Assembly (NCBI GenBank): GCA_965183885.1
Contig: OZ238992.1
Coordinates: 1,572,528-1,636,527, forward strand
DNA from: Flavobacteriales bacterium
GTDB lineage: Bacteria; Bacteroidota; Bacteroidia; Flavobacteriales; BACL11
Direction of reading: 5' to 3'
DNA length: 64,000 nucleotides
Numbering within the stretch: the first letter of the stretch is position 1; every line of letters starts with the position of its first letter. Positions 1 to 20,138 of the stretch are shown here, in pieces. The notes below the pieces were generated by a model that was not told the origin of the DNA, ran no database searches, and saw only the letters and a program-made list of their open reading frames with translations. The translations under genes were made by a program, and so were the position numbers.

Positions 1-1812
1 GTTTATGGAAGGGGGAACAGGAACTCCTGCTAGCGTAGTCCAAACTCCTCCAGGGTCTTCATTTGTTAATAATGTTCCCATGTTAAATGAGTTAGTACTA
101 TTAATGCAAATCTCTTGGTTGTTAGCTACTCCTGAATAAGGAAGAGTGTTAACGGTTGTAGTTAAACTAGCTGTTGATATAGCTCCGTTACAACCTGTAC
201 TGTCAGTAATACTTGTGATAGTATAGGTAGTTGTACTTGATGGAATAAAGGTTATAGGGTTTCCTCCTACAGTACCATTAATATCAAGCGTGTAAGGTGC
301 TATTGCACCTCCTGTATCTAGTAGTAATGTAAAAGGTGGTGTTCCTGTTAATGCAAATCCAAGAGTAACTGTTTCACCTTCACAAATTGCAGTAGCACCA
401 CTAATAGAGATATCAACTGTTGAATTTGGAGTTACAGAAATAGTATCAGTTATATTACATAATGGATGAGTATTGTCATAAGCAAATACCTGTATTTGAG
501 TAGGTACACTTACTGAGACAAGAGGACTTTGTGATGAAGGGTTTGTAATATCAGTAGTTCCTCCACTTGTAAGATTTGACCATGTGTAGTTGTAAACAGC
601 AGATGAAGGACAGCTAACAACAGTGTTGAAACTTCCAGGAACACCCCCAGGGGCTCCTTGCTGTGTAAGTAAATTATTTCCGCTATCAAAAACTTTATAA
701 AGACATTCATTTGCGGCATTACCTAGTGATGTGAATATGGTGCTAAATTGATCGCCATCAGAAACAGGGATAGAGTAAGAAACAGAAGTTGCATTAGCTC
801 CATTAGACATGGTATAATTACTGTATAAACTTGAGTTAATATTGACATCTAAATTATGATAGGTTTGAGGGTTTGTACCTACAGTCCATCCTGGGTTACT
901 TGCTCCTCCAGGTAAGTAGTTCCACAATTCTAAAGTGTAGCTACAGTAGCTTTTAATAGTTGCTTCGGCATTAAGAGTGTCATTAAGTGCACAAGGAATA
1001 TTTGTAACAGAAGCATTTACAGTAGGTTGTTCAACAACTATTGTTTTTGTAGCATAGCAAGTATCATCAACCCAGTTAGAATATACCAAAGAATAAGTAG
1101 TTGTAGCATACGGAGCAACAATAACACTATCTTGAGTGTAACTAGCAGGAATAGCTCCTCCACTCCATAGTGGAGAGTATCCAGTACAAGTTGCAATATT
1201 TACATTGTCTATCCCCCAAAAGTCCCATCCAGTTCCAGAGGCATTAGTTTGTATCCATCTAAATTGAGTAGTAGAAGTTTGTGCAGCTAAAGGTATAGGG
1301 TAGCAATAGTTGTTCCATCCAGTATAAGGATATCCAACAGGGTTAAAGTAGAAAATTTGAGTCCAAACTCCACCAGCAACCTTGTATTGTAAATAAACTC
1401 CTTCGTTAGATTGGTCAGGTCCGTCACAAGTACCCCCTTGAGTTTCTTGTCTAAAGTCGAAACAGATATCTCCCCCACAAGATGCATCTACAGGGATTGT
1501 AGTGGCTGATCTTGGAGTTGGAGATCCAGCACCAAACCATAAGTGTTGCCCTCCATTAGGGTTTGTTCCACAAGGCCCACCAATAGTGTATCCACTAGTT
1601 ACAGATTGCCAGAGTCCACTTAGGGTACTAGCTGTAAAATCATCTGATGAGGCTCCTCCAACTCCAATTTGTTGCAGCTCTAAACTATCACCACAAGAAA
1701 TAGTATCTCTTGAAGATGCAATGTTAGTACTACATTGAGCATTTAATTGAGTAGAAGCAGCTATGAAAAATAAGAATAAAAGATATTTCGAAATAGTAGA
1801 AGTACTGTTCAT
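1..1812 (-). CDS. Large secreted Cys-rich modular surface protein with N-terminal Reelin-subrepeat-like domain and Ig-like modules (partial; runs off window start)
   Basis: Not in the ORF track because there is no stop in the window. Manual translation from ATG at 1812 is open to position 1: MNSTSTISKYLLFLFFIAASTQLNAQC... (signal peptide ending AQ) ...EGVYLQYKVAGGVWT...PLAAQTSTTQFRWIQ...DFWGIDNVNI... The start overlaps the upstream stop (TAATG). Confidence 0.9.
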   Translation of the reverse strand, partial: MNSTSTISKYLLFLFFIAASTQLNAQCSTNIASSRDTISCGDSLELQQIGVGGASSDDFTASTLSGLWQSVTSGYTIGGPCGTNPNGGQHLWFGAGSPTPRSATTIPVDASCGGDICFDFRQETQGGTCDGPDQSNEGVYLQYKVAGGVWTQIFYFNPVGYPYTGWNNYCYPIPLAAQTSTTQFRWIQTNASGTGWDFWGIDNVNIATCTGYSPLWSGGAIPASYTQDSVIVAPYATTTYSLVYSNWVDDTCYATKTIVVEQPTVNASVTNIPCALNDTLNAEATIKSYCSYTLELWNYLPGGASNPGWTVGTNPQTYHNLDVNINSSLYSNYTMSNGANATSVSYSIPVSDGDQFSTIFTSLGNAANECLYKVFDSGNNLLTQQGAPGGVPGSFNTVVSCPSSAVYNYTWSNLTSGGTTDITNPSSQSPLVSVSVPTQIQVFAYDNTHPLCNITDTISVTPNSTVDISISGATAICEGETVTLGFALTGTPPFTLLLDTGGAIAPYTLDINGTVGGNPITFIPSSTTTYTITSITDSTGCNGAISTASLTTTVNTLPYSGVANNQEICINSTNSFNMGTLLTNEDPGGVWTTLAGVPVPPSIN

Positions 1813-2258
1813 TAATAAATATTTAAGTTCGTTAATTGAAATTCTGTTAGGGAAATAATTTTGTCAACCCCAGGCATTTTAGCTAAATCTTCAGTAAATT
1901 TTGAAAAAATACGTAGTGCATTTTGGTTTGTACAATTTCCCTGAATAGTTGTATTTGCAGCAACTATTATTTGTTTGTTAGACTCATCAGAATCTGATTC
2001 ACAGTTAATGCAATTATTGTCATACCATAGTTCTTCTTTCCAGTCTATAGTAATTTTGTTATTGGTATAATTGCTAATCTTTATTACAAGAAACTCACTG
2101 TTAAACTGTTCTGTGTACTCACAATTGGAGTATGTGTATTCGATTTTTACTTGATTGTCTTGGTGGTAGGTAGTCCAATTATTAGAGGTTTGAGCAAATG
2201 TTTGAACTGTACCGAAAAAAGTAAATATTGAAAAAAGTGTAGCAAAGAATAATTTCAT
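1812..2258 (-). CDS. Secreted hypothetical protein (148 aa, 4 Cys)
   Basis: Signal peptide ending TFAQ; TATATTTG promoter-like element upstream; stop overlaps the ATG of the downstream gene. Confidence 0.8.
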   Translation of the reverse strand: MKLFFATLFSIFTFFGTVQTFAQTSNNWTTYHQDNQVKIEYTYSNCEYTEQFNSEFLVIKISNYTNNKITIDWKEELWYDNNCINCESDSDESNKQIIVAANTTIQGNCTNQNALRIFSKFTEDLAKMPGVDKIISLTEFQLTNLNIY

Positions 2259-2340: not shown

Positions 2341-3066
2341 TTAAAATTTAGTGCAGCTATTCTCTAGGACCCAAGCGGTATTTCCATTAGATAATTTAAT
2401 GTTTATCCACTCACCAATTTGATCAGTTATTATAACTTTTGTACCAGCATGAAGACTGAAAAGTTCGGTGCTATTGCTACTAGGAGCACTAAAGGCTACA
2501 ACTACATCATTAAAAATAATAGCCTGCCTTAAGTTATAATTAGAGTAGGAAGCAAAGCTTAAAGTTAGTAATAAGAGTGATGATAGAATAAGAGGTTTGA
2601 TATAGTTTTTGGAGTTGAAAGGAGTTCTTTTTCCAACTATCCATATTAGTAAAACTAACCAAATAGAAATAAGAGTTAAGTATTGCCAGGTTTTGGTGTT
2701 AAACAAGTTAACTGTTTTTTGCCACCATTTCTTATAAAATAATTGAGGGAGGTCCTCTATTTTATCTATAATCTTAAGTTTAGTTAATGCTAGGTTTTCA
2801 GCAGCTTGTGTAGTATGATTTAGCTTTAGACTTCTTTCATAGTTTAAAATTGCAGCAGCCCAGTTATTTGTTTTATAATAACAGTTTGCAAGATTATAAT
2901 AAAGCTCACTACTAATATATTCAGTTTGTATTATGCTATCATAAAGTAAAATAGCTTCTTGGTATTTCTCACTAGCATATAATTCGTTAGCGCTAATAAA
3001 TAATTGTTCATTTGGTAGCGCAACGATTGAATGTAAGAGTGATATTATAAATAGTATTTTTCTCAT
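2341..3066 (-). CDS. batE: BatE (TPR + TM + SH3-like domain)
   Basis: TPR (LYYNLANCYYK, AILNYERSL), two TM segments, C-terminal LHAGTKV..GEW..I.L.NG..W; last gene of the bat cluster. Confidence 0.88.
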   Translation of the reverse strand: MRKILFIISLLHSIVALPNEQLFISANELYASEKYQEAILLYDSIIQTEYISSELYYNLANCYYKTNNWAAAILNYERSLKLNHTTQAAENLALTKLKIIDKIEDLPQLFYKKWWQKTVNLFNTKTWQYLTLISIWLVLLIWIVGKRTPFNSKNYIKPLILSSLLLLTLSFASYSNYNLRQAIIFNDVVVAFSAPSSNSTELFSLHAGTKVIITDQIGEWINIKLSNGNTAWVLENSCTKF

Positions 3067-4805
3067 TTTAAGGAGGTCTCTACTTCAATTATTATTGTTT
3101 TTGCTTTTTCTAGAATTGTATCCATTTGTGTATTTTTATTACTAGCTGGAGCATATCGAGCAAATTCACATTCGTCAAGCAAAGCAATAAAAGCAGTTTC
3201 AATATTTTTATTAATGGATGATTTATTAAAATGCATATTGATACTTTCTTTTGAAAGCTCAGCAGCATTAACTTTAAATTTGTCAGAGAAATAGCCCCAA
3301 AGTGATTTTTCTATTTCTTCAAAAAACAGATCAAAATCATTGTTCTTTATGCAGTTTTGAGCAGATTTTAATCGTTTTAGTGCAATTTTATTGGCTTTTT
3401 TTGTTTTTGAGCTATTCTTATCACTTTTATTGATGGCTGTATATGCTCTAAATATTAGGAGTATGAGTAGGGGTAGTAAAAATAAGGTTAGGAATAAATT
3501 CTTTGATAATAGTACATCATTTATCTTTTTAAGATTTGTGTTTTTGCTAATATAATGGATATCTTTATTATTACTAACTAATTGCTGATTTTGAGTGTTT
3601 CCATCTTCGTTATTCTTGCTCTTAGTAACTTTAATATTATGGCTGCTTGCTCTTTTGTTTTGATATTTTTTTGTTTTGGTATTAAAAACGCTGAGTGTAG
3701 CTTCAGGAATAGTATATTCCCCTTTATATCTAGGGATTAATAAGTATTCATAGGTTTTAATGCTTCTTTTTCTTCCTCCCTCAAAAATACGTTCACTAAT
3801 CTTTGGGTCATATACCTCAAAGTCAGACGGAAAATTTATTGTTAAGGGTTCTATTAGCTCAAGGTTACCTGTTCCTGTAAGTTTTAGTTTGTAAGTTATG
3901 GCATCATTTGCTGCTATTGTATTATTATCAATACTTGATGTAACGCTTATATTTCCTACAGCACCATTAAAATTATTAGGTGTAGGTTTTGGTAACTCTT
4001 TTACTTTAATGTGTATTGGTTTTGAAGTAATAAATTCATCTTGTGTGGAATATCCTCCTCCAAACATATTTGCAATAGGGTCTCTGCTATTTCGTTTGTT
4101 TTTAACCCGAATACTGCATTTAAGCTCTAAAGGATCAATTATTAATTGTCCTGATTTTTGTGCGGTAAGAACTGACTTTTTTATTGTAGCAGTATTATAT
4201 GGAACACCATTAATCACTTCCCTTTTAAAACGACTGGATGCTTCTAAGTCTTTTGTCCAAAAACCATTGAGTGCAGGAAGGTTTGATGCTACTGTACTTG
4301 CTAAGTCAATTCTAGTGAAAAGCTTATAGGAAACTAGTATCTGTTCTCCAACATAGATATTACTTTTACTTACACTAACTTTAATAAATAGGTTCTCAGT
4401 TAATGACTTTTGTTCTGCTTTTGTTCTCTCACTTGCCTTTACAACTTTTAGTTGTAGGCTCTTACTTTTAATAGTTTTACCATTAACATTGATGCTAGCA
4501 GGGCTAATTGTGTAGTTTCCTTCTTTTGAAGCTTTTAAATAAAAAGTATAAGTTGTTGAGCTTGTATTTTGGCTTTTCCCATTTACATAGCTATAACTAC
4601 TTTGTGTAGATGGGTTGGGACCGCTAAGTACACGTAAACCATTAAATTTTGGAGCTTTAAAGCCATTGCCTTTGGTGTTGATAGTATATTGCACTAGAAT
4701 TTGTTCTCCAGCAATAGCAGGATTTTTGTCAACAGCTACAGTAAGTTGTTGTGCTTTTGCAAATAGACTGCAAAATAAAAATATAATAATACTTATTTTC
4801 TTCAA
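3063..4805 (-). CDS. batD: BatD (oxygen tolerance family)
   Basis: Signal peptide, LSGPNPS, YVGEQI, F.GAVG, FEVYDPK, CEFARYAP motifs; position in the bat operon. Confidence 0.9.
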   Translation of the reverse strand: MKKISIIIFLFCSLFAKAQQLTVAVDKNPAIAGEQILVQYTINTKGNGFKAPKFNGLRVLSGPNPSTQSSYSYVNGKSQNTSSTTYTFYLKASKEGNYTISPASINVNGKTIKSKSLQLKVVKASERTKAEQKSLTENLFIKVSVSKSNIYVGEQILVSYKLFTRIDLASTVASNLPALNGFWTKDLEASSRFKREVINGVPYNTATIKKSVLTAQKSGQLIIDPLELKCSIRVKNKRNSRDPIANMFGGGYSTQDEFITSKPIHIKVKELPKPTPNNFNGAVGNISVTSSIDNNTIAANDAITYKLKLTGTGNLELIEPLTINFPSDFEVYDPKISERIFEGGRKRSIKTYEYLLIPRYKGEYTIPEATLSVFNTKTKKYQNKRASSHNIKVTKSKNNEDGNTQNQQLVSNNKDIHYISKNTNLKKINDVLLSKNLFLTLFLLPLLILLIFRAYTAINKSDKNSSKTKKANKIALKRLKSAQNCIKNNDFDLFFEEIEKSLWGYFSDKFKVNAAELSKESINMHFNKSSINKNIETAFIALLDECEFARYAPASNKNTQMDTILEKAKTIIIEVETSLK

Positions 4806-4806
4806 T

Positions 4807-5541
4807 TTACCAATCTTTTAATACTTTAACTCTTTTTCCTTTAACCTTCTTTTTTTGTAATTCTTCTTGCAAGTCTTTTTCTTGTTGTTGTATAGCTTCT
4901 AGCATTTTCTCAGCATCCTCTTTGGTCATATCCTCTTTTTCTTTGGATTGCTGTTGTTCCTTTTTTTCTTCTTGTTCTTTTTGTTGTTCTTGGTTTTGTT
5001 CTTTATTTAGCTCTTCTTCTTCCTTATTTTCTCCTTCTTTGTCTCCTTCTTTGTCTTCTTTTTTGTCTTTATTATTTTCGTTGTTTTTATCTCCTTCCCC
5101 TTTTTGTTGTTCTTGTTCTTTTTGTTGCTGCTTAATAAGAGTTATATTTTCTCTAGCCTCTTCATCATTAGGATTTAGTCTAAAAGCCTGCTTGTACGCT
5201 TCAATAGCATCATCTAATTTCTGCTCTTTTGTTAATGAGTTTCCTAGATTGTAATATACTTTAGCTAAATCTTCATCAGTTTTTGCATTATCAATTAAGG
5301 ATTTAAATAAACCTGATGATTCTTCATACCTTTCTTGTTTGTATACTGAGTTTGCTAAGTTATAAGAAGCATTGAAATAATCTTGGTCTTTTTCTAAAGC
5401 TTTTCTGTACTGCATCTCAGCTTCATTATAGCTACTATCAGCATATAAATCATTTCCATCTCTTAAAAAGGATTTTTTATTTTGAGCTAAGGTAGCTGTG
5501 CTGCTTATTACTAGCAATAATATGAGTAATATATTTTTCAT
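4807..5541 (-). CDS. batC: BatC (TPR protein with charged low-complexity tail)
   Basis: TPRs (YNLANSVY, YNLGNSL), Q/E/K-rich linker, C-terminal KDW. Confidence 0.88.
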   Translation of the reverse strand: MKNILLILLLVISSTATLAQNKKSFLRDGNDLYADSSYNEAEMQYRKALEKDQDYFNASYNLANSVYKQERYEESSGLFKSLIDNAKTDEDLAKVYYNLGNSLTKEQKLDDAIEAYKQAFRLNPNDEEARENITLIKQQQKEQEQQKGEGDKNNENNKDKKEDKEGDKEGENKEEEELNKEQNQEQQKEQEEKKEQQQSKEKEDMTKEDAEKMLEAIQQQEKDLQEELQKKKVKGKRVKVLKDW

Positions 5542-6575
5542 TATTCCTTGTAAAAATTAATTCGGTTACTCCATTTATTTTTTCTTCCTAAAAGGATTAA
5601 ATCAATAAATAAAAAGAAGAGTGCTATTCCTAAAAATAGTTGGAAACGGTCTTTATATTCTGTAAAAACCATAGTGCCAATTTCTTTCTTCTCCATTTTG
5701 TTTATTTCAGCAAATAATGTTGAAAGCCCAGCCTGTGAATTATTAGCACGAACATAGGTTCCATTACCAGCACTTGCAATTTGTTGGAGCAAGCCTTCAT
5801 TTAATTTACTTACAATGGTATTTCCTTCCTTATCTTTTCTGTATTTAGTTATAACTCCATATTTATTATAAACAGGTATAGGTCCTCCTTTACTTAGTCC
5901 CATTCCTAAGGTGTGAATAAAAACCCCTTCTTCTTGAGCTTTTTTAGCACTTTCAATTGCTTCTTCATCGTGGCTTTCTCCATCAGTAATTATAATGATA
6001 GCTTTGCTTTGAGCATTTTCTTTGTCAAAAGACTCTTTACATAAATCAATTGCCTTTCCTATTTTAGTTCCTTGTGTAGGAATTATATTTGTATTTACTG
6101 TAGATAAAAATAATTTGGCAGCAGAGTAGTCTGTAGTAATTGGTAGTTGTACGTAAGCTTCTCCTGCAAATACAACTAGTCCTATTCTATCTCCTTTTAG
6201 TTTGTCTATTAAACGAGAGATGGCTTGTTTAGCCCTCTCTAGTCTGTTAGGTTTTATATCTTCAGCTAACATGGAGTTAGAGAGGTCAATAGCAATCATA
6301 ATATCTGCACCTTCTCTTTTTACTTCTTCCATTTTTGCACCTACTTGAGGGTTACTAATCCCAACAATAAGAAGGGTGAAAATAAGAATAGTAAGAATGT
6401 TTTTTATTTGTGATCTTTTTTTAGAAAAAGAATGTAAAAGTTCTTTTACTAGTGCAGGGTTTCCAAATAAAGCCAAAGATTTTTTCTTCCATCTATTGTG
6501 TAAGAAAATAGCAATAATTAAAACAGGAACTCCATAAAGGAGGTTTAGAAATTCTATGTGTTCGTACCTTAACAT
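5541..6575 (-). CDS. batB: BatB (VWA domain)
   Basis: MIDAS DLSNSM, PNRLERAK, LPITTDY, ITDGE; follows batA. Confidence 0.9.
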   Translation of the reverse strand: MLRYEHIEFLNLLYGVPVLIIAIFLHNRWKKKSLALFGNPALVKELLHSFSKKRSQIKNILTILIFTLLIVGISNPQVGAKMEEVKREGADIMIAIDLSNSMLAEDIKPNRLERAKQAISRLIDKLKGDRIGLVVFAGEAYVQLPITTDYSAAKLFLSTVNTNIIPTQGTKIGKAIDLCKESFDKENAQSKAIIIITDGESHDEEAIESAKKAQEEGVFIHTLGMGLSKGGPIPVYNKYGVITKYRKDKEGNTIVSKLNEGLLQQIASAGNGTYVRANNSQAGLSTLFAEINKMEKKEIGTMVFTEYKDRFQLFLGIALFFLFIDLILLGRKNKWSNRINFYKE

Positions 6576-10423: not shown

Positions 10424-12406
10424 CTACCTTATTATAAAAAGATGCCCCATCTCTTGGTGTTTCCATTCTTCAAAATCTTGAAAGTAAATTTCATAAACAT
10501 AAACTCCCATAGGAAGGTCATTTTCTGTTTCATAATGCTTTCCATCCCAACCATTTTCATTTAAGAAACACTCTAATTCATTAATGTTGTTTGTAGTGTA
10601 AACTAGGTTAGACCCTCTGTTGTAGACGTTAAAGTAGAAAGTCTCAATTCTAACCCCATTGTATGAGATGCAGAACTTATCATTTTTACCATCTAAATCA
10701 GGAGTAAAGCTATTTGGAATATACATCCAATATTTATCAGCTACCCATAATTGTTTAAAGGTTGTATCACTACACCCAAAATTATCCTGTACTACTAAAC
10801 TTATTTGGTAAACCCCTAATGAGTCGGCATATTCATGGTATGGGTTTCTTGTAAAATTATTAGGCGAATTATCTCCAAAATCCCATGTCCAGTCTGTTAT
10901 ATTTCCTAAAGAGGCGTCATTTAATTGTAGTGTAGGGTGTAAAATATTTATAGTGTCCGAAACTGTTGTAAAATGTGCTGTTGGTGCTTCTCTTAAAGTT
11001 ACAAAAGCTTGTCCTGATATTGAACCGTATCCATTTATATCTAAAACAGAAACAAGTGTATAAGTTCCTTCCTTACTTGTGTTGATAATATAAGGGTTTA
11101 TTGAGGTTGTAATGCTTGGTTGTGAAATCCCGTCAATTGCATAGATGAAAGTATAAGAAGCTGTAACGTTACTAAAAGTAATTTTGATTTCAGCAGCACC
11201 GGGGATATTGTCGCATATAGTGTCATTCCCGTAGATAAAAGCATTTAAATTACTAGTAACGCAAGTATTTATACAAGAGCTGTAAGAACTGAATGTTCCA
11301 AAGCCTGTTCCAGGGTCTATACAGGCACCATTAATACAGTCCCAACTTGGAGTAGTAGCGCAAACAAGCGCACAAGAAGCAGAATCGGAATAAATTCCAC
11401 TACCATTCCCTGGGTCAATACAAGCTCCGTTTATACAGTTCCAACTTTTTGAGGTGCTAATACAAGTTGAAGTATCTGAACAATCCCCGATATTTAGTAT
11501 AACGGCATAATTTCCGCTTGAGGTTATTGTAAATGTTTGATTTGTATCTCCAGGAATAATTGTATTATTATTACAATCAAACCATTGATAAGTTGCATTA
11601 GTGTCATTAGAGATAAGGGTGTTTCCAATTTGTGAAATGCCTAAGTCAAATATCCCTAGCCCTGTCCCTTCTCTGAACAATGACAATATTTCACAATCAG
11701 TTAGGATGTCACTATAAAGTCGAACATCATCAATTTCACCTGAAAAAAATTCGCCAGTACCACCATCTTTAAACCTTCCCATCATCATAAACTGGCCTGT
11801 TGTTTCCCATGTTCCTGAAGAAACATCTTTTTCTGCTAGTATTTGAATACCATTCATGTATAGATATACGCTATCTTTTACGTTATCTTTCATAGCAACT
11901 AAATGATGCCATGAACTTAGTGAGTAATCGTTACTAGTATGAAATGATATATGTCTAGTCCCTGAAACGTTCCCGAAACTGTATCTTATGTCAAAATCCA
12001 TATCAGCATCTAGATTGTCAATTCTAAGCATTAAAATATTTCTTGAACTTGGACTATCAGCATCACTATCATCTTTATCATCATATCGAAGTAAATTTTG
12101 CTTAGCATTAGTGTTGCAATTGAACCAGAGACTTATGGAACTAATTGTTGATTCTTCATAATGTAATGAGGCATCATTCCCTAAATTAATCCAGTCATCT
12201 GTTCCGTCAAAATGGTAAGCACTATTTGTATTTCCAAATCTATCTGCTGTTAAAGAGGCTCCATTTACAACTCCATTATTTGAATTTGCAGAGGCATCAT
12301 TTGCATTTCCATTAAATGGATAATAAGCATCTAAATTATCAGTGGGAATTTGAGCTTGAACCTGGCAGATAGTTGCTATTGTAATAATAAATAATATTCT
12401 TTTCAT
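10424..12406 (-). CDS. T9SS type-B cargo: LamG-like jelly roll + Cys-rich repeats + Ig-like + PKD + gliding-motility-associated CTD
   Basis: Signal peptide; YYPFNGNAND..DRFG..AY.FDG..WHHLVA..LYMNG..FSGEIDDVRLY (LamG); WTWDFGD (PKD); IPNSFTPD.DG.ND...WDG...GVY.Y (type-B CTD). Confidence 0.88.
   Translation of the reverse strand: MKRILFIITIATICQVQAQIPTDNLDAYYPFNGNANDASANSNNGVVNGASLTADRFGNTNSAYHFDGTDDWINLGNDASLHYEESTISSISLWFNCNTNAKQNLLRYDDKDDSDADSPSSRNILMLRIDNLDADMDFDIRYSFGNVSGTRHISFHTSNDYSLSSWHHLVAMKDNVKDSVYLYMNGIQILAEKDVSSGTWETTGQFMMMGRFKDGGTGEFFSGEIDDVRLYSDILTDCEILSLFREGTGLGIFDLGISQIGNTLISNDTNATYQWFDCNNNTIIPGDTNQTFTITSSGNYAVILNIGDCSDTSTCISTSKSWNCINGACIDPGNGSGIYSDSASCALVCATTPSWDCINGACIDPGTGFGTFSSYSSCINTCVTSNLNAFIYGNDTICDNIPGAAEIKITFSNVTASYTFIYAIDGISQPSITTSINPYIINTSKEGTYTLVSVLDINGYGSISGQAFVTLREAPTAHFTTVSDTINILHPTLQLNDASLGNITDWTWDFGDNSPNNFTRNPYHEYADSLGVYQISLVVQDNFGCSDTTFKQLWVADKYWMYIPNSFTPDLDGKNDKFCISYNGVRIETFYFNVYNRGSNLVYTTNNINELECFLNENGWDGKHYETENDLPMGVYVYEIYFQDFEEWKHQEMGHLFIIR
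10499..10555 (-). repeat. 57-bp perfect inverted repeat, copy 1 (partner 20007-20063)
   Basis: AATGGTTGGGATGGAAAGCATTATGAAACAGAAAATGACCTTCCTATGGGAGTTTAT occurs in both genes. Confidence 0.9.
10629..10826 (-). repeat. 198-bp inverted repeat, copy 1 (partner 19736-19933)
   Basis: Base-by-base comparison: identical except 10654 vs 19908. Confidence 0.93.
11261..11446 (-). repeat. Two tandem 29-aa Cys-rich coding repeats
   Basis: SWNCINGACIDPGNGSGIYSDSASCALVC (11360-11446) and SWDCINGACIDPGTGFGTFSSYSSCINTC (11261-11347). Confidence 0.9.
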
Positions 12407-13492: not shown

Positions 13493-15259
13493 ATGAGTGA
13501 GGATAAAACAGGAAATGTATTAGATTGGGATTTACTTAAAAGAGTAATTACTTATGCAAAACCTTATAGGTTGCAATTTGTAATTGCAGCTGTTTCTGCA
13601 ATCTTATTGTCATTCTTAGGTCCTTTACGTCCTATGCTTATCAATTATGCTATTGATAATTATATTGTTATTCCTGATAAGGAAAAACTTTTAGATATAA
13701 CAACACTACTAATTGGATTGCTTTTTTTTGAGGGGCTTGTTCAGTTCTTTTATATCTATCTTTCTACTTGGATTGGGCAACATGTAATCCAAGATTTAAG
13801 AGTGAAAGTTTTTAAGCACATCTTATCTTTAAAGATGAAGTATTTTGATAATAATGCTATTGGTACATTAATTACACGAACAGTTTCGGACATAGAAACT
13901 ATTGCAGACATTTTCTCACAAGGGTTATTGGTTATTATTGCGGAATTATTGAAGCTGATTGTCGTAATTACGATGATGTTTTATACTGATTGGCGTTTGG
14001 CAATTATTGCAATGTTAACTATTCCTATTTTATTGGTTGCTACGGCTTGGTTTAAACGAAATGTAAAAGCTGCTTTTCAGGATGTTAGAGAGCAGGTTTC
14101 ACAGCTTAATACTTTTGTTCAAGAGCATATTGTAGGAATGAACATTGTTCAGATTTTTAATAGAGAAACATCAGAGTATAAAAAGTTTAAGTCAATTAAT
14201 GGAAAGCATAGAGATGCAAACCTTAGATCAATCTTTTATTATGCAGTCTTTTTTCCTGTAGTAGAGGTGCTCTCAGCAGTTTCAATAGGGTTAATTGTAT
14301 GGTATGGTGGGGAGCGTATTTTATCAGGAGAAAATATTACAATAGGGGAGCTAATAGCATTTATATTATTTGTTCATATGATGTTTAGGCCTATTAGACA
14401 ATTAGCAGATAGATTTAACATATTGCAAATGGGTATTGTAGGTTCTGAGCGTGTATTTAAGGTGTTAGATACTGAGGATAAGATAGAAAATGAGGGTGAT
14501 AAGTTATTGGGAGCATTGAAGGGGTCAATTAAATTTGAAAATGTAGATTTTTACTATAAAGAAAATGAATGGGTCCTAAAAGGCTTAAGCTTTGAAGCTG
14601 AAGCTGGAAAATTACTTGCTTTGGTAGGTAGGACAGGAGCAGGGAAAACATCAATTATTAGCGTTTTAAATCGCTTTTATGAGATACAGAATGGAACAAT
14701 AACAATAGATGGTGTTCTAATTGAAAAAATTCAACTTGAAAGTTTAAGAAAAAATATTGCCTTAGTGCAGCAGGAGGTGTTTTTGTTTTCTGATTCTATT
14801 TTAAATAACATTACCTTGTATGATACTACTATTACAAGGAATGATGTGGTTAGTGCTGCTAAGGAAATTGGAGTGGATGAGTTTATTAATACACTACCTA
14901 ATAGTTATGATTATGTAGTGGGTGAACGAGGAGTTACTTTATCGGCAGGACAACGGCAACTTATTGCATTTCTAAGAGTGTATGTTCGAGACCCTAAAGT
15001 TTTAATTTTAGATGAAGCTACATCTTCAATAGATACCGCTACTGAAGTATTATTACAAAGTGCATTAGAAAAATTATTAAAAGATCGTACTACTATTGTA
15101 ATTGCTCATAGGCTTTCTACTATAATAAATGCAGATAAAATTTTACACTTAAAAGATGGTACTGTTCTTGAACAGGGAACTCATAAGCAATTGCTTAGTA
15201 ATGGTGGTTCTTACGCTGAACTGTATGAGAAACAGGCGGGTGTAAGAGTGAGTGAGTAA
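13493..15259 (+). CDS. ABC exporter half-transporter (MdlB-like)
   Basis: TM domain, Walker A GRTGAGKT, LSAGQRQ, LDEATS, IAHRLST. Confidence 0.92.
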   Translation: MSEDKTGNVLDWDLLKRVITYAKPYRLQFVIAAVSAILLSFLGPLRPMLINYAIDNYIVIPDKEKLLDITTLLIGLLFFEGLVQFFYIYLSTWIGQHVIQDLRVKVFKHILSLKMKYFDNNAIGTLITRTVSDIETIADIFSQGLLVIIAELLKLIVVITMMFYTDWRLAIIAMLTIPILLVATAWFKRNVKAAFQDVREQVSQLNTFVQEHIVGMNIVQIFNRETSEYKKFKSINGKHRDANLRSIFYYAVFFPVVEVLSAVSIGLIVWYGGERILSGENITIGELIAFILFVHMMFRPIRQLADRFNILQMGIVGSERVFKVLDTEDKIENEGDKLLGALKGSIKFENVDFYYKENEWVLKGLSFEAEAGKLLALVGRTGAGKTSIISVLNRFYEIQNGTITIDGVLIEKIQLESLRKNIALVQQEVFLFSDSILNNITLYDTTITRNDVVSAAKEIGVDEFINTLPNSYDYVVGERGVTLSAGQRQLIAFLRVYVRDPKVLILDEATSSIDTATEVLLQSALEKLLKDRTTIVIAHRLSTIINADKILHLKDGTVLEQGTHKQLLSNGGSYAELYEKQAGVRVSE

Positions 15260-15311: not shown

Positions 15312-17384
15312 ATGCTAAAAAAAATAATTATTCTATTTGTGGGTATTTTTTCAACGACATTGATAAGTGCTCAAATAGTAATTGATAATAATACACCTTA
15401 TGATGCTCCTGCTTGGTTAGTAGATAATATCCTTTTAGGAGGAGGGGTTACAGCTTCTAATATTATATATCAAGGAGATTCGTCTCAAATAGGTTGGTTT
15501 GATGCGGTAAATACAAACTTAGGTATTGATAGCGGTATAGTGCTTTGTACTGGAGATGTTTATGCTCTTGATCCTACAAATATAGGACTTGGTGCTAACC
15601 CAGCAAATATTGTTGCTGACCCTGATTTATTGAATGTTGCAAATTCAGTTCCTCCCTTAATTGGACAAACTTTTACCGTTTCAGGAATAAATGATGTGGC
15701 AATATTAGAGTTTGAATTTATTCCTACTTCTGATTCTTTAAAGTTTAATTATGTTTTTGGTTCTCAAGAATATTTTGGATTTGAGAATACTCAATATAAT
15801 GATGTTTTTGGTTTTTTCTTGTCAGGACCTGGAATTACAGGTGCATATTCATCCCCAGCAGGGTTTCCAAACGGATCTATCAACTTGGCTGTAGTTCCAG
15901 GGTCAAATCCACCTTTGCCAATTACAATTTCCTCAATTAATAGTGTAACACCAATAAATCAACAATATTTTGTTCCAAACCAAGGTACAGCTTTAGATAC
16001 TATTGATGATGCTGATGGAATGACAACAGTACTTACTGCTAGAGCTTTGGTGCAATGTGGAGAAACATATCATATTCGTTTAGCTATTGCTGATGGTGCA
16101 GATCAGGGTTTAAGTTCTTATGTTTGGTTAGAAGCAGGGAGTTTTTATTCTCCTCCCCTTGAAATTATTGATGAGTTGGGAATTGATTCTACAGTTATGG
16201 AAATTCCTTGTAATTCATCTATTATGTTAACTGCAAATGGAGGAGCTGGAGCTACTTATCAATGGTTTGATTCTTTAGGAGTTGTTTTTGGTACTGATTC
16301 ATCAGTAATAGTAGGTGCAGGAACTTATTGGGTTGAAGCAACGTCTTTAGGTTGTCCTGTAGTTTCGGACACTCTTCGAGTTATTCAGGATGATTCTCCA
16401 GTCTTTGATTTAGGTATGGATTATAATATTCCTTGTAATACAACAACTTTTATTGATCCTGTAGTTACTGGAGGGAGAGGTAATCCTTTTTATACTTACT
16501 TATGGAATACAGGAAGTACTGATACTATACTAGAAGTTAATCAGGGAACATATATCTTAGAGGTAGATGATGGGACAGGTTGTTCTTTTAAAGATACACT
16601 TGTTATTACTGAAGATGCAGCACCTCTTACTGTTATATCTGGAGGAGGAGCTATTTGTGATGATGGGTCTTTAGCTACAATTTCATTTAATTTTAATGGT
16701 TTGTTGCCTTGGGAATTAACATATACTGATGGGAATATTAATAATACTGTTACTAATATTATCTCATCAACTTATACATTCTTATCTTCTGTTGAAGGGG
16801 ATTATCTAATAGTTAACTCTAAGGATGTTAATTCCTGCGTCTCTGATACTCTTGGAAGTGCTCATATAAGAGTTAATCCTCTTCCTCTTCCTGTAATTAC
16901 TCCTAATGATACTACAATCTATATTGGAGATATAGCAGAACTAGATGCAGGAAAATTTGTTAGTTATAAATGGTATACTATTGAGGATTCTTTGGTAGCT
17001 ACTACTCAAGTATTAGAGGTTGCTGATTCTGGAACTTTTTATATATGGGTTGAGGATGAAAATGGTTGTACAAATGTTTCTGATTCAGCAGTAGTACATA
17101 CCCTTCCTAAAACGGAATTATTTGTACCTACAGCATTTACTCCTAATGGAGACAATCATAATGAGCTACTAGCTATTAAAGGAGTAAATATTGCTGAATA
17201 TAACCTTAAGATATTTAACAGATGGGGTGAGCTACTTTTTGAGAGCAATGTGTTAGAGAAATATTGGGATGGTTCTTTTGAGAATGAGAAAGTAGCTCAA
17301 GGTGTTTATTATTATACAATAGAAGCTCTTGGAGAAGATAATATACTGTTTAATCTTTCAGGTACTGTTAACGTAATTTATTAA
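15312..17384 (+). CDS. T9SS type-B cargo with choice-of-anchor L-like N-terminal domain, Ig-like modules and CTD
   Basis: DVAILEFEF.P...F.YVFGSQEY...YNDVFGFFLSGPG...YHIRLAIAD; CTD FVPTAFTPNGD.HNE..IFNRWG..WDG..GVYYY. Confidence 0.88.
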   Translation: MLKKIIILFVGIFSTTLISAQIVIDNNTPYDAPAWLVDNILLGGGVTASNIIYQGDSSQIGWFDAVNTNLGIDSGIVLCTGDVYALDPTNIGLGANPANIVADPDLLNVANSVPPLIGQTFTVSGINDVAILEFEFIPTSDSLKFNYVFGSQEYFGFENTQYNDVFGFFLSGPGITGAYSSPAGFPNGSINLAVVPGSNPPLPITISSINSVTPINQQYFVPNQGTALDTIDDADGMTTVLTARALVQCGETYHIRLAIADGADQGLSSYVWLEAGSFYSPPLEIIDELGIDSTVMEIPCNSSIMLTANGGAGATYQWFDSLGVVFGTDSSVIVGAGTYWVEATSLGCPVVSDTLRVIQDDSPVFDLGMDYNIPCNTTTFIDPVVTGGRGNPFYTYLWNTGSTDTILEVNQGTYILEVDDGTGCSFKDTLVITEDAAPLTVISGGGAICDDGSLATISFNFNGLLPWELTYTDGNINNTVTNIISSTYTFLSSVEGDYLIVNSKDVNSCVSDTLGSAHIRVNPLPLPVITPNDTTIYIGDIAELDAGKFVSYKWYTIEDSLVATTQVLEVADSGTFYIWVEDENGCTNVSDSAVVHTLPKTELFVPTAFTPNGDNHNELLAIKGVNIAEYNLKIFNRWGELLFESNVLEKYWDGSFENEKVAQGVYYYTIEALGEDNILFNLSGTVNVIY

Positions 17385-17387
17385 TTT

Positions 17388-20138
17388 ATGAGAAAAAATT
17401 TATTCTTATTCTGTATCTTTTTTAGTTTAATAACTAATGCTCAAACTACTGATTGGGTTAAATCATTTGGAGGTACTGCTTCAGATAAAGGTATTTCTAT
17501 TGGTACAGATTCACTTGGATTTATTTATGTAAGTGGTTATTTTAATAATGAGGCTACTTTTGGTACTATTACTTTAACGAATAGCCCTTTAAGTACTTGG
17601 GGAAATAATAAAGAGAATTTTGTTTTTAAAATGGATTCTCTTGGAAATGTTTTGTGGGCTGTTGCAGGTGGAAATTTAGCAGGAGGTTGTTGTGATGATA
17701 GAGCCTTAGGGATGCATGTAACTCCTGGGGGAGATGTTTTTATTACAGGTACATTTTGGTCATCTTATAATATTGGAAGTTGTAGTGTAACTCAAAATGT
17801 ATGGGGAACAGCTTTAAACTCTTCGGATAATTCTCTTTTGGCAAAATTAGATAAAGATGGGAATTGTCAATGGGTAATTGGATTTGGTGCAGATGAAGGA
17901 GCAGGAAGTGGAGCAGATTGTCCTTGGCCTATTTATGATGCTGATGACCATTCCTATGATGTAAAAGTAGATGCTGATGGTTTTATTTATGTTACAGGTT
18001 TCTTTTCAGGACTTAGTGCTGACTTTGATACTCTTACAATTACTAATCCTACTTGGAATACTACTTGTACCCCAATGGGCTATATAGGAAAACTTGATCC
18101 AAATGGAAACTGGATTTGGGTGGATAAGTTTGATGGAATTAAAGATGCTAGAGGCTCAAGAGATAATAGGTTAGCTATTGATCAATTTTCAAATATTTAT
18201 GTAGTAGGTGGTTTTGAAAATACTGGGACCTATGGACCATATTCTATTACCTCAAATGGAGAGTGGGATGCTTTTATCTTTAAGATGGATAAAAATGGAA
18301 ATTGGATTTGGGCTAAGAATGTAGGAAGTAATAAAACAGATAGAGCAAATTCTATTGCTGTTGATGTTTGTGATGATGTTTATATTACTGGAGAATATAG
18401 AAACCCTATGGTGTTTTCTGGAGCAAATGCATCAAATGGAACAGATACATTAAGTCATAAAAAGAAAAGAGATGTATTTGTAGCTAAGATGAATAATAAA
18501 GGAGAATGGAAGTGGGCAAAAAGAGCAAGAAGTACAGGTACAGATAAACCGTATCAAATGTCAGTTGATGCAAATAAACAGGTGTTTTTAGGAGGTACTG
18601 CAGGAGGAGAGATGACATTCTCCAATGGATTAGTAGTTGGACCTCAAATAGCAGGAGATACTACTATGTCCTCTTGGGTAGCACAGTTAGATGGATCAAC
18701 AAATACTGGAGATTGGGTTTGGGCAAAAATGGCAGGATCTAATACAGATGATGATGATAGAACTGGAGACATTTGTCCTGATGGTTTTGGGAATGTATAT
18801 GCTGTAGGGTTTTTTGAGGAATTGGCTAATTTTGATGGTACTATTTTAGATGCTACAGGAAGAAGAAAAGATATATTTGTTTGGAAGATGAGCATGACTC
18901 CTGGGAGTTTTACTTATAATAATTCTTTCGATACTATTTTTGCAGATAGTATGGTGTTTAATCCAGCAGATACAGGGGTTTTTACCACAAGTTCTCTTGT
19001 TTTGGATGGTTGTGATACTACTTTTGTTGATTCAATTATTCATCAAAAATTAGGAGTGCAAATTAATTACAATATTAATAACCCTGGTACAGCTACTATT
19101 ACTATTGATGGTGTAGTGCAAACTATGCCTTATGCTAAAAACTATTGGTTTGGAGAAACTATTAGTATTGCAGCAACTTTGCAGCCCAATTGGTTATTTA
19201 GCCAGTGGAAAACATACTCTAATTCAGTATTACCTAGCTCAAGTAGTATAACAGCTACTTTTATTGCTAATTATTCTGACTCTTGCATTTTCATGACTTA
19301 TCCTAAACCTCCTTTGGAGGCTTTTATTCTTGGAAATGACACATTATGCAGTAATGACCCTAATGATGCTGAGGTTAAGGTATCCTTTAGTGGAGCTTCA
19401 GCCCCTTATACTTTTGTGTATGCTGTTAACGGGATTACTCAGTCAAGTATTACTACATCAATAAACCCTTATGTTATAAAAACAAGGGAAGAGGGTGTAT
19501 ATACTTTAGTTTCTTTTGCAGATGCTTCTTTAACTGGTGCAATATCAGGCTCTGCTCTTGTAACGATAAGGCAAGCTCCAGAAGCACAATTTACAACTGT
19601 TTCTGATACACTAAGTGTTTTGTACCCTGTTATAAAACTAAATGATGTATCTTTAGGGAACATTACAGATTGGACTTGGAATTTTGGAGATAATTCTCCT
19701 GATGATTATATTAAGAATCCTTCTCATACATATGTCGACTCATTAGGGGTTTACCAAATAAGTTTAGTAGTACAGGATAATTTTGGGTGTAGTGATACAA
19801 CCTTTAAACAATTATGGGTAGCTGATAAATATTGGATGTATATTCCAAATAGCTTTACTCCTGATTTAGATGGTAAAAATGATAAGTTCTGCATCTCATA
19901 CAATGGGATTAGAATTGAGACTTTCTACTTTAATGTTTATGATCGATTTTCTAACCTTGTATATACCACGGATGCAGTTAAGGAGCTAGAGTGTTTTTTA
20001 AATCAGAATGGTTGGGATGGAAAGCATTATGAAACAGAAAATGACCTTCCTATGGGAGTTTATATCTACAATATCTATTTTCAAGATTTTGAAGGGTGGA
20101 AACATCAAGAGGTGGGGGAGATATTTATTATTAGATAA
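17388..20138 (+). CDS. T9SS type-B cargo: SBBP-type beta-propeller + Ig-like + PKD + CTD
   Basis: Repeated D..G.IYV.G.F / F..K.D..G...W blades; WNFGD (PKD); IPNSFTPD CTD nearly identical to that of 10424..12406. Confidence 0.88.
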   Translation: MRKNLFLFCIFFSLITNAQTTDWVKSFGGTASDKGISIGTDSLGFIYVSGYFNNEATFGTITLTNSPLSTWGNNKENFVFKMDSLGNVLWAVAGGNLAGGCCDDRALGMHVTPGGDVFITGTFWSSYNIGSCSVTQNVWGTALNSSDNSLLAKLDKDGNCQWVIGFGADEGAGSGADCPWPIYDADDHSYDVKVDADGFIYVTGFFSGLSADFDTLTITNPTWNTTCTPMGYIGKLDPNGNWIWVDKFDGIKDARGSRDNRLAIDQFSNIYVVGGFENTGTYGPYSITSNGEWDAFIFKMDKNGNWIWAKNVGSNKTDRANSIAVDVCDDVYITGEYRNPMVFSGANASNGTDTLSHKKKRDVFVAKMNNKGEWKWAKRARSTGTDKPYQMSVDANKQVFLGGTAGGEMTFSNGLVVGPQIAGDTTMSSWVAQLDGSTNTGDWVWAKMAGSNTDDDDRTGDICPDGFGNVYAVGFFEELANFDGTILDATGRRKDIFVWKMSMTPGSFTYNNSFDTIFADSMVFNPADTGVFTTSSLVLDGCDTTFVDSIIHQKLGVQINYNINNPGTATITIDGVVQTMPYAKNYWFGETISIAATLQPNWLFSQWKTYSNSVLPSSSSITATFIANYSDSCIFMTYPKPPLEAFILGNDTLCSNDPNDAEVKVSFSGASAPYTFVYAVNGITQSSITTSINPYVIKTREEGVYTLVSFADASLTGAISGSALVTIRQAPEAQFTTVSDTLSVLYPVIKLNDVSLGNITDWTWNFGDNSPDDYIKNPSHTYVDSLGVYQISLVVQDNFGCSDTTFKQLWVADKYWMYIPNSFTPDLDGKNDKFCISYNGIRIETFYFNVYDRFSNLVYTTDAVKELECFLNQNGWDGKHYETENDLPMGVYIYNIYFQDFEGWKHQEVGEIFIIR
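19736..19933 (+). repeat. 198-bp inverted repeat, copy 2 (partner 10629-10826)
   Basis: 172 bp perfect, 1 mismatch, 25 bp perfect. Confidence 0.93.

Follow-up and report, generated by a model that had tools for sequence, protein, structure and literature searches.

Reelin appears among the later-evolving matrix proteins in a passage of a 2012 review (PMC3308698). Excerpts of the structural literature describe its subrepeats as built of eleven strands, as resembling CBMs and cleaved-adhesin domains and as carrying, like both of these, a Ca2+ ion on the convex side (PMC4882317), with one internal disulfide per subrepeat that preserves the calcium site (PMC6908669). In our literature search, no paper was found on bacterial homologs of reelin subrepeats. 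Here we describe such a homolog, encoded at the very beginning of a 64,000-nucleotide stretch of the genome of a Flavobacteriales bacterium (contig OZ238992.1, positions 1,572,528 to 1,636,527; the whole of this stretch is hereafter called the window). The gene lies on the minus strand, and its predicted product is a 1374-residue cargo protein of the type IX secretion system (T9SS) with a single domain of the reelin subrepeat-B type, hereafter the head, close to its N-terminus.

The head is like reelin subrepeat B (PF21471; PDB 2DDU, 2E26, 3A7Q/5B4X, 6A48 and 7LYU) in family, by sequence, and in its fold, an 11-strand jelly roll, and has in common with it an ordered series of motifs (DDF, CG, C..PD, EGV.LQY, FRW.Q and W.IDNV) and a pair of cysteines. 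Unlike reelin, the window protein carries the subrepeat only once, lacks subrepeat A, EGF modules and a reeler domain, has a degenerate Asp-box and is built on a T9SS carrier. This carrier is in turn like that of SprB and other T9SS type B cargo (CHU_C, TIGR04131), with a signal peptide, a long run of immunoglobulin-like (Ig-like) and PKD domains and a C-terminal type B sorting domain, in a genome that encodes SprA and PorP/SprF. Close relatives of the protein are named 'gliding motility-associated C-terminal domain-containing protein' by their sources. Unlike SprB, it has no SprB-repeat match in Pfam, no adjacent PorP/SprF gene and an upstream partner that is small and of no known family, and it is far smaller. 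The cleaved-adhesin domains of gingipains and HagA (PDB 4ITC, 3KM5), MAM domains and CBM4/16/22/29 share with the head a broad jelly-roll fold class. Jelly rolls of these three kinds often serve secreted proteins as calcium-stabilised binding heads, and those of the cleaved-adhesin type named here are also T9SS cargo of Bacteroidota.

Sequence and structure of the head

Pfam assigned residues 78-206 of the protein to PF21471 (Reelin_subrepeat-B) with an E-value of 9.1e-17 and 61.5 bits (cut-off 27), the match covering positions 5-126 of the 127-position model, and no second Pfam family was found on the head region even at E<=10. The corresponding domain of a paralog described below scored 67.7 bits. 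When all PDB sequences were searched with phmmer, five distinct reelin sequences were retrieved (E 1.7e-14 to 1.7e-13), the sole other row being a ribosomal protein at E 2. A profile was also made from an alignment, A1, of 22 bacterial copies (the window copy, its paralog and 20 copies from 15 related prokaryote genomes). Searched against the PDB, it returned reelin alone, in five of five rows at E<=10, with a best E-value of 3.7e-58; it matched all four subrepeats of reelin repeats 5-6, and the two B subrepeats ranked highest. In chimaera reelin, the B subrepeats scored 49-101 bits and the A subrepeats 20-53 bits. The resemblance to reelin is far beyond chance, and homology of the head to reelin subrepeats is near certain. 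When each of the 22 copies of A1 was compared separately with Pfam (E<=10), all matched PF21471; other families were BNR (5/22, best E 0.022), CHB_HEX_C (5/22), Tli3 (3/22) and IDM1_C (1/22).

The AlphaFold2 model of the head built on A1 (mean predicted local distance difference test [pLDDT] score 88.8; predicted template-modelling score [pTM] 0.86) has eleven strands, a number equal to that of reelin subrepeats. Reelin took ranks 1-8 in a Foldseek search of the PDB (E 1.1e-11 to 7e-10, TM-score 0.76-0.82, 26-29% identity), followed by a MAM domain (1.4e-5), CBM4-2 (3.3e-5) and the K1 cleaved-adhesin domain (5.4e-5). VIA-align, an independent structural comparison against representatives, gave reelin Z-scores of 18.5-20.5, with root-mean-square deviations of 1.9-2.5 over 146-154 residues; outside reelin, the highest Z-scores were 13.2 for the K1 cleaved adhesin, 12.5 for chains with a MAM domain and 12.1 for CBMs. 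As modelled, the head is a jelly roll that superposes better on reelin than on other jelly rolls.

Nine positions are invariant in the 22 copies, namely C32, R52, F69, C80, E88, P125, Q139, D148 and W150 (numbered along window 1174-1665, minus strand). The two cysteines are those of the PCG and CDGPD motifs, and the acidic positions of DDF and IDNV align with those of reelin when the bacterial profile is compared with the PDB. By analogy with reelin, a disulfide and a calcium site in the bacterial head are plausible. The Asp-box (S/T-x-D/N-x-G-x-x-W) is canonical in 8 of the 22 bacterial copies, to which neither the window protein nor its paralog belongs; membership of PF21471 stands despite the degenerate box because the Pfam model does not require the motif.

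These results bear out most of what an earlier note, made from the letters of this DNA, had read from the region. That note had proposed a bacterial homolog of reelin subrepeats at window positions 1195-1644, and the head is indeed a true homolog, nearer by score to subrepeat B than to A. The positions are exact for residues 57-206 of the translated open reading frame (ORF), residue 57 starting at 1644 and residue 206 ending at 1195 on the minus strand, and every motif listed is present in the translation (DDF, LWQSVTSG, GGPCG, HLWF, RSATTIPVD, ICFDFR, CDGPDQSNEGVYLQYKVAGGVWTQI, PIPLAAQTSTTQFRWIQ and GWDFWGIDNVNI). The alteration of the Asp-box that it had pointed out, to YKVAGGVW, is real.

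Distribution and phylogeny

PF21471 was found at E<=0.001 in 34 of 61 related genomes, and over the cut-off in 24 of them; of 36 genomes from the family that the window belongs to, 25 had it at E<=0.001. No match was found in any of 14 control genomes. An even sample across the phylum, restricted to genomes of at least 90% completeness, gave matches in 70 of 301 genomes at E<=0.001 and in 25 over the cut-off. A word-indexed protein search returned 65 proteins from 1407 candidates, all but one of which (64/65) already had PF21471 in the precomputed Pfam column; the few that bore names had the gliding-motility name quoted above or 'hypothetical protein' and came from Flavobacteriales, Crocinitomicaceae and Lishizhenia. 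An exhaustive profile search yielded 3065 cluster representatives (50% identity) at E<=0.001, of which 1897 remained at 1e-10 and 806 at 1e-30. The PF21471 module is very common in bacteria and is already a database family.

Names were looked up for 30 of the 150 best matches of the profile search. Ten were named eukaryotic proteins, one further protein came from a eukaryote protein set and two were named bacterial proteins. Reelins or reelin-like proteins of chimaera, hagfish, lancelet, acorn worm, crinoid, horseshoe crab and nemertean accounted for seven of the ten, the rest being an unnamed krill protein, a protein of the sponge Sycon and a protein of the choanoflagellate Salpingoeca infusionum. 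Of the two bacterial proteins, one is a T9SS type A protein of Bacteroidota that has 12 copies, and the other, a matrixin-family protease from a cyanobacterium, is the one named protein that places the module outside Bacteroidota among prokaryotes. Proteins P0081, P0086, P0072, P0073 and P0082 are from the choanoflagellate (S. infusionum, with 8-10 copies), the sponge (Sycon) and protostomes (horseshoe crab, nemertean and krill). Giant proteins consisting almost entirely of tandem reelin-like subrepeats were also seen, with 35-36 copies in P0067 (metagenome, 5983 residues) and 12 in P0068 (Bacteroidota, 3445 residues).

A FastTree tree was computed from 147 domain rows, comprising the 22 genome copies, 10 rows from four named bacterial proteins, 66 unnamed rows (the best domain of every second match) and, as eukaryotic rows, subrepeats of the chimaera and acorn-worm reelins, of the sponge and choanoflagellate proteins and of one further protein from the eukaryote set. 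Eukaryotic rows covering fewer than 110 profile positions or scoring less than 25 bits were omitted, as were bacterial and unnamed rows covering fewer than 110 positions and seven proteins (six named or putative eukaryotic, and one horseshoe-crab reelin). In this tree, 90 bacterial and unnamed rows lay on one starred side (96*), and the named eukaryotic rows, bar two sponge domains, lay on the opposite side, a placement that is weakly supported (81). A quick tree made with IQ-TREE from 79 rows, with chimaera as the only animal and every fifth unnamed row, needed two changes of the eukaryote label, of which the starred branches force only one. An approximately unbiased test did not reject the joining of all 33 eukaryotic rows (delta lnL 5.0, p 0.395), a group that was named after the first tree had been seen.

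Both trees placed the window head well inside a starred bacterial clade (97* and 46 rows with FastTree, 96* and 25 rows with IQ-TREE). All 27 rows of the 46-row clade that come from database proteins, whose names give the position, begin at residue 48-76 of their protein, so that the arrangement at the N-terminal tip is a trait of the clade. The trees are unrooted, with no usable outgroup at such divergence, and for this reason do not show the direction of transfer between bacteria and eukaryotes. The window protein is a member of the PF21471 family and not a reelin ortholog: reelin itself has a Reeler domain, eight A-EGF-B repeats and a basic C-terminal region, and Pfam, run on the full 1374 residues, found one subrepeat and no EGF or Reeler domain. 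The earlier note had called the domain a bacterial homolog of a metazoan extracellular-matrix module, relevant to the origin of Reelin repeats. Its homology to reelin held; the metazoan label is too narrow, since the module occurs in 3065 clusters, most of those listed having bacterial-type architectures, and Pfam marks them. As for the origin of the repeats, the head sits deep in the bacterial clade and not beside the eukaryotic branch, and its bearing on that question is thus no greater than that of any other among thousands of bacterial copies.

Stalk and export signals

The remainder of the protein agrees with the proposal that the head is displayed at the N-terminus of an Ig-like stalk. 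Pfam, run on the full protein, found Pom152-like Ig domains (PF24312, Ig-like_POM152, E 2.2e-17; PF23664; PF24527), a PKD domain at residues 1227-1271 and CHU_C (PF13585) at residues 1286-1370 (48.6 bits, cut-off 27), and the NCBIfam model of the T9SS type B sorting domain, TIGR04131, scored 35.4 bits (cut-off 35). Extension of the contig, proposed earlier as a check for a T9SS C-terminal domain, thus uncovered a type B sorting domain at the end of the protein. Between head and Ig repeats, residues 207-471 matched no Pfam family at E<=10; their language-model look-alikes were SprB-repeat, Ig_7 and PKD clusters at 0.82-0.88, which serve as leads only. Within this stretch of 265 residues (window 400-1194, minus strand), a segment (YTLELWNYLPGG...GW) may be a separate small sandwich domain. 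Gln right after the site of signal cleavage is a habit of Bacteroidota; the N-terminus of the window protein is signal-peptide-like, and its likely cleavage site is followed by Gln, as is that of the small protein encoded upstream, which fits this habit.

The genome encodes one SprA (2644.7 bits) and five genes of the PorP/SprF family, three of which directly follow another CHU_C gene. CHU_C matched 24 times in the genome, 21 times over the cut-off, so much surface cargo being a heavy load for a genome of only 2.1 Mb. Three more CHU_C (T9SS type B) sorting domains were seen in the window itself, at about 10466-10720 (minus strand), 17124-17327 (plus strand) and 19842-20087 (plus strand).

Upstream partner and tandem cassette

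The stop codon of a small gene and the start codon of the large gene overlap in TAATG, with one base shared, an arrangement that makes translational coupling possible. The small gene encodes a 148-residue protein with a signal-peptide-like start and six cysteines and with no Pfam or NCBIfam match. A search for this partner in the 61 related genomes gave 26 matches in 20 genomes, of which 25 were located directly upstream of a PF21471 match and on the same strand, the exception (in genome G030) being on another contig. Seen from the other side, 24 of the 31 over-cut-off PF21471 matches had the partner upstream, and the pairs include genomes of two other families. The partner's own family has 298 members at E<=0.001, and among the 120 of them listed there is no Pfam domain and no name more informative than 'hypothetical protein' or a raw gene-call string.

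The AlphaFold2 model of the partner (pLDDT 87.4) has eight strands. Foldseek found no match to it in the PDB at E<=0.001, the partner profile found nothing below E 0.69 among PDB sequences, and no fused or longer form of the partner was found, which is weak evidence. Prediction of a complex of head (alignment A1) and partner (alignment A2) gave run scores of 0.65, 0.29 and 0.13 against a mark of 0.32, without controls, and speaks neither for binding between the two nor against it.

The two-gene cassette is tandemly duplicated, the second copy comprising 13616..14071 and 9466..13623 of L003 on the minus strand (genome 1565465-1570070, just beyond the window), with a large protein of 1385 residues. 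Over residues 932-1374 the two large proteins are 98-100% identical in each block of 50 residues, with two mismatches in the last 1200 nucleotides, and over the first ~930 residues they are 46-80% identical, the heads being 61% identical. Such identical tails with diverged heads suggest, as far as the sequences tell, recent gene conversion of the tail or its partial re-duplication, the heads having stayed different. New in this work are the secreted 148-residue protein without family, upstream in 25 of 26 occurrences, and the tandem cassette with diverged heads and identical tails.

Genomic context

The window holds the first 604 residues of the large protein as a minus-strand ORF that runs from position 1812 to base 1 and is open at its 3' end, which is probably why the gene is missing from the ORF track. 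Read onward along the same contig, the gene extends 2313 nucleotides past the window start and occupies 14216..18340 of L003 (minus strand). The source genome is a single contig of 2.11 Mb that is 99.6% complete with 0.02% contamination. On its flanks the large gene has the partner gene, the cassette of the paralog and a 166-residue ORF. The features of the two genes within the window are collected in Table 1. Immediately upstream, and likewise on the minus strand, is a Bat-type (aerotolerance) operon (window 2341-6575) that encodes a VWA/BatA-N protein, a TPR protein, BatD and a TPR+SH3 protein, with a gap of 82 nucleotides between it and the partner gene.

Table 1. Features of the large gene and of its upstream partner, in window coordinates
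Feature	Position	Strand	Basis
Putative signal peptide of the large protein, residues 1-26 (MNSTSTISKYLLFLFFIAASTQLNA, then Q)	1735..1812	-	Translation: K at position 9, hydrophobic core, A-Q; predicted cleavage site
Short Cys-containing N-terminal segment before the jelly roll, residues 27-56	1645..1734	-	CGES..LQ flank common to close relatives in alignment A1; no family assigned
Reelin-subrepeat-B-like jelly-roll domain, residues 57-206	1195..1644	-	PF21471 match, reelin PDB matches, AlphaFold2 model
Residues 207-471, no family assigned; probably more beta-sandwich stalk modules	400..1194	-	No Pfam match at E<=10; language-model look-alikes as leads
Start of the Pom152-like Ig repeat stalk, residues 472-604	1..399	-	Ig-like_POM152, weak in the window part (E 0.071)
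Upstream partner gene, 148-residue secreted beta-sandwich protein of no known family	1812..2258	-	ORF; 1-nucleotide overlap with the start of the large gene

Discussion

On balance, we favor the view that the large gene encodes a T9SS protein displayed at the cell surface, whose reelin-like head, at the tip of a stalk, binds an external ligand with the assistance of the small partner, the two paralogs having two specificities. The 1374-residue product would be exported by the T9SS and would consist, in order, of a signal peptide-like N-terminus, the single reelin-B-like jelly roll, some 1000 residues of Ig-like and PKD domains and the type B sorting domain. Type B cargo, SprB for example, remains at the outer membrane with its C-terminal end; if that of the window protein were likewise held there after export, the reelin-like domain would be the distal head of a long stalk. 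Such a head could act as a binding module for a glycan, a particle or a cell surface, its shape kept by the invariant pair of cysteines and probably also by structural Ca2+, bound at a site comparable to those of reelin subrepeats and of CBM-type jelly rolls, and the secreted partner would work with it in some manner. The tandem cassette, with diverged heads on identical tails, would fit two specificities on one design of anchoring and export. The binding role itself we place at a little better than even.

Several observations weigh against this picture. TIGR04131 passes its cut-off by 0.4 bits only. A PorP/SprF-like gene beside the cargo gene is usual for SprB-type cargo, and none adjoins the large gene, none of the genome's five being near 1,565,000-1,575,000. 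The Asp-box of the window protein retains only the G and the W. The best VIA-align score of the partner model is a Z of 6.6, to assorted Ig-like sandwiches. We know of no glycan binding by reelin subrepeats, which are mostly structural. Finally, the W, F, R, E and D conserved across the family (FRW.Q, W.ID.V) are residues conserved in reelin as well, and from the alignment they look like core positions and do not point to a binding site.

Two other accounts of the kinship with reelin have to be weighed. The head might be a generic galactose-binding-like jelly roll of the MAM, CBM or cleaved-adhesin type, its likeness to reelin reflecting a shared fold and no specific kinship. Generic jelly rolls do turn up in the structure searches (Z 10-13; Foldseek E 1e-5 to 3e-4), and reelin subrepeats themselves have been likened to CBMs and cleaved-adhesin domains in the excerpts cited above (PMC4882317). 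The earlier note had named equal or better scores of such jelly rolls as grounds for abandoning the homology, and the comparison came out the other way, reelin outscoring all three in sequence as well as in structure (Z 18.5-20.5 for reelin, at most 13.2 for the others). The lead of reelin amounts to 5 to 8 Z units, six orders of magnitude in Foldseek E-value and 26-29% against 8-16% identity, and no MAM, CBM or Cleaved_Adhesin family matched any of the 22 copies in Pfam at E<=10 or appeared in the PDB sequence searches. With similarity at the level of the fold only and no profile match, membership in any of these families is rejected, and we regard a generic jelly roll as a very improbable explanation. 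Recent acquisition of the gene or its head from an animal, or contamination of the assembly, is hardly credible. The G+C content of the first 2 kb of the window (0.375, against 0.29-0.35 elsewhere) could be read in its favor, but the genome is one contig with next to no contamination, as stated above, the domain is present in most genomes of the same family (25/36), the head falls inside the starred bacterial clade and far from the eukaryotic rows, and the architecture, with a T9SS sorting domain and no EGF or reeler domain, is bacterial; on these grounds both animal transfer and contamination are rejected.

The function of the head is where a rival carries more weight. Rather than binding a ligand, the head might be a structural or self-associating module, which caps or stabilises the stalk or makes like-to-like contacts between fibres or cells, much as reelin subrepeats pack into a rod. 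The coincidence of its family-wide conserved positions with those of reelin suggests conservation of a core rather than of a site, other members with 12 to 36 tandem copies (P0068 and P0067) look like rod-builders, and the Asp-boxes of reelin hold subrepeats together, according to a passage of PMC2716378. Against this, the window protein has one copy only, at its extreme N-terminus, in a position kept across the whole clade; the heads of the two paralogs have diverged while the tails are identical, as expected of a part that determines specificity; and the loops carry large clade-specific insertions (A1 columns 160-200). We consider a structural head unlikely and retain the ligand-binding tip as the preferred reading. 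A bolder proposal would join these threads: head and small protein would form a dedicated two-part unit, the small protein being a periplasmic keeper, a co-exported cap or a co-receptor, and this unit would be a modular, swappable specificity cassette on the T9SS fibres of marine Flavobacteriales, and bacterial heads of this kind would have supplied the holozoan ancestor with the subrepeat, which animals would later have multiplied to make reelin. This we offer as a speculation that, taken as a whole, is unlikely.

The case described here is an ordinary, well-supported member of a large family that is recognised by Pfam and little discussed in print, and it shows no special closeness to the animal branch. 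Being one instance of such a family, it carries modest weight, and the conserved small partner gene is its most useful lead. For the biology of reelin, it is further evidence that the subrepeat, which a choanoflagellate and a sponge also have, is a surface module widespread among microbes and not an animal invention. For marine microbiology, it defines a common cassette of head plus partner on the T9SS surface fibres of small-genome Flavobacteriales, and the ligand of the head could explain how such cells attach to particles or algae.

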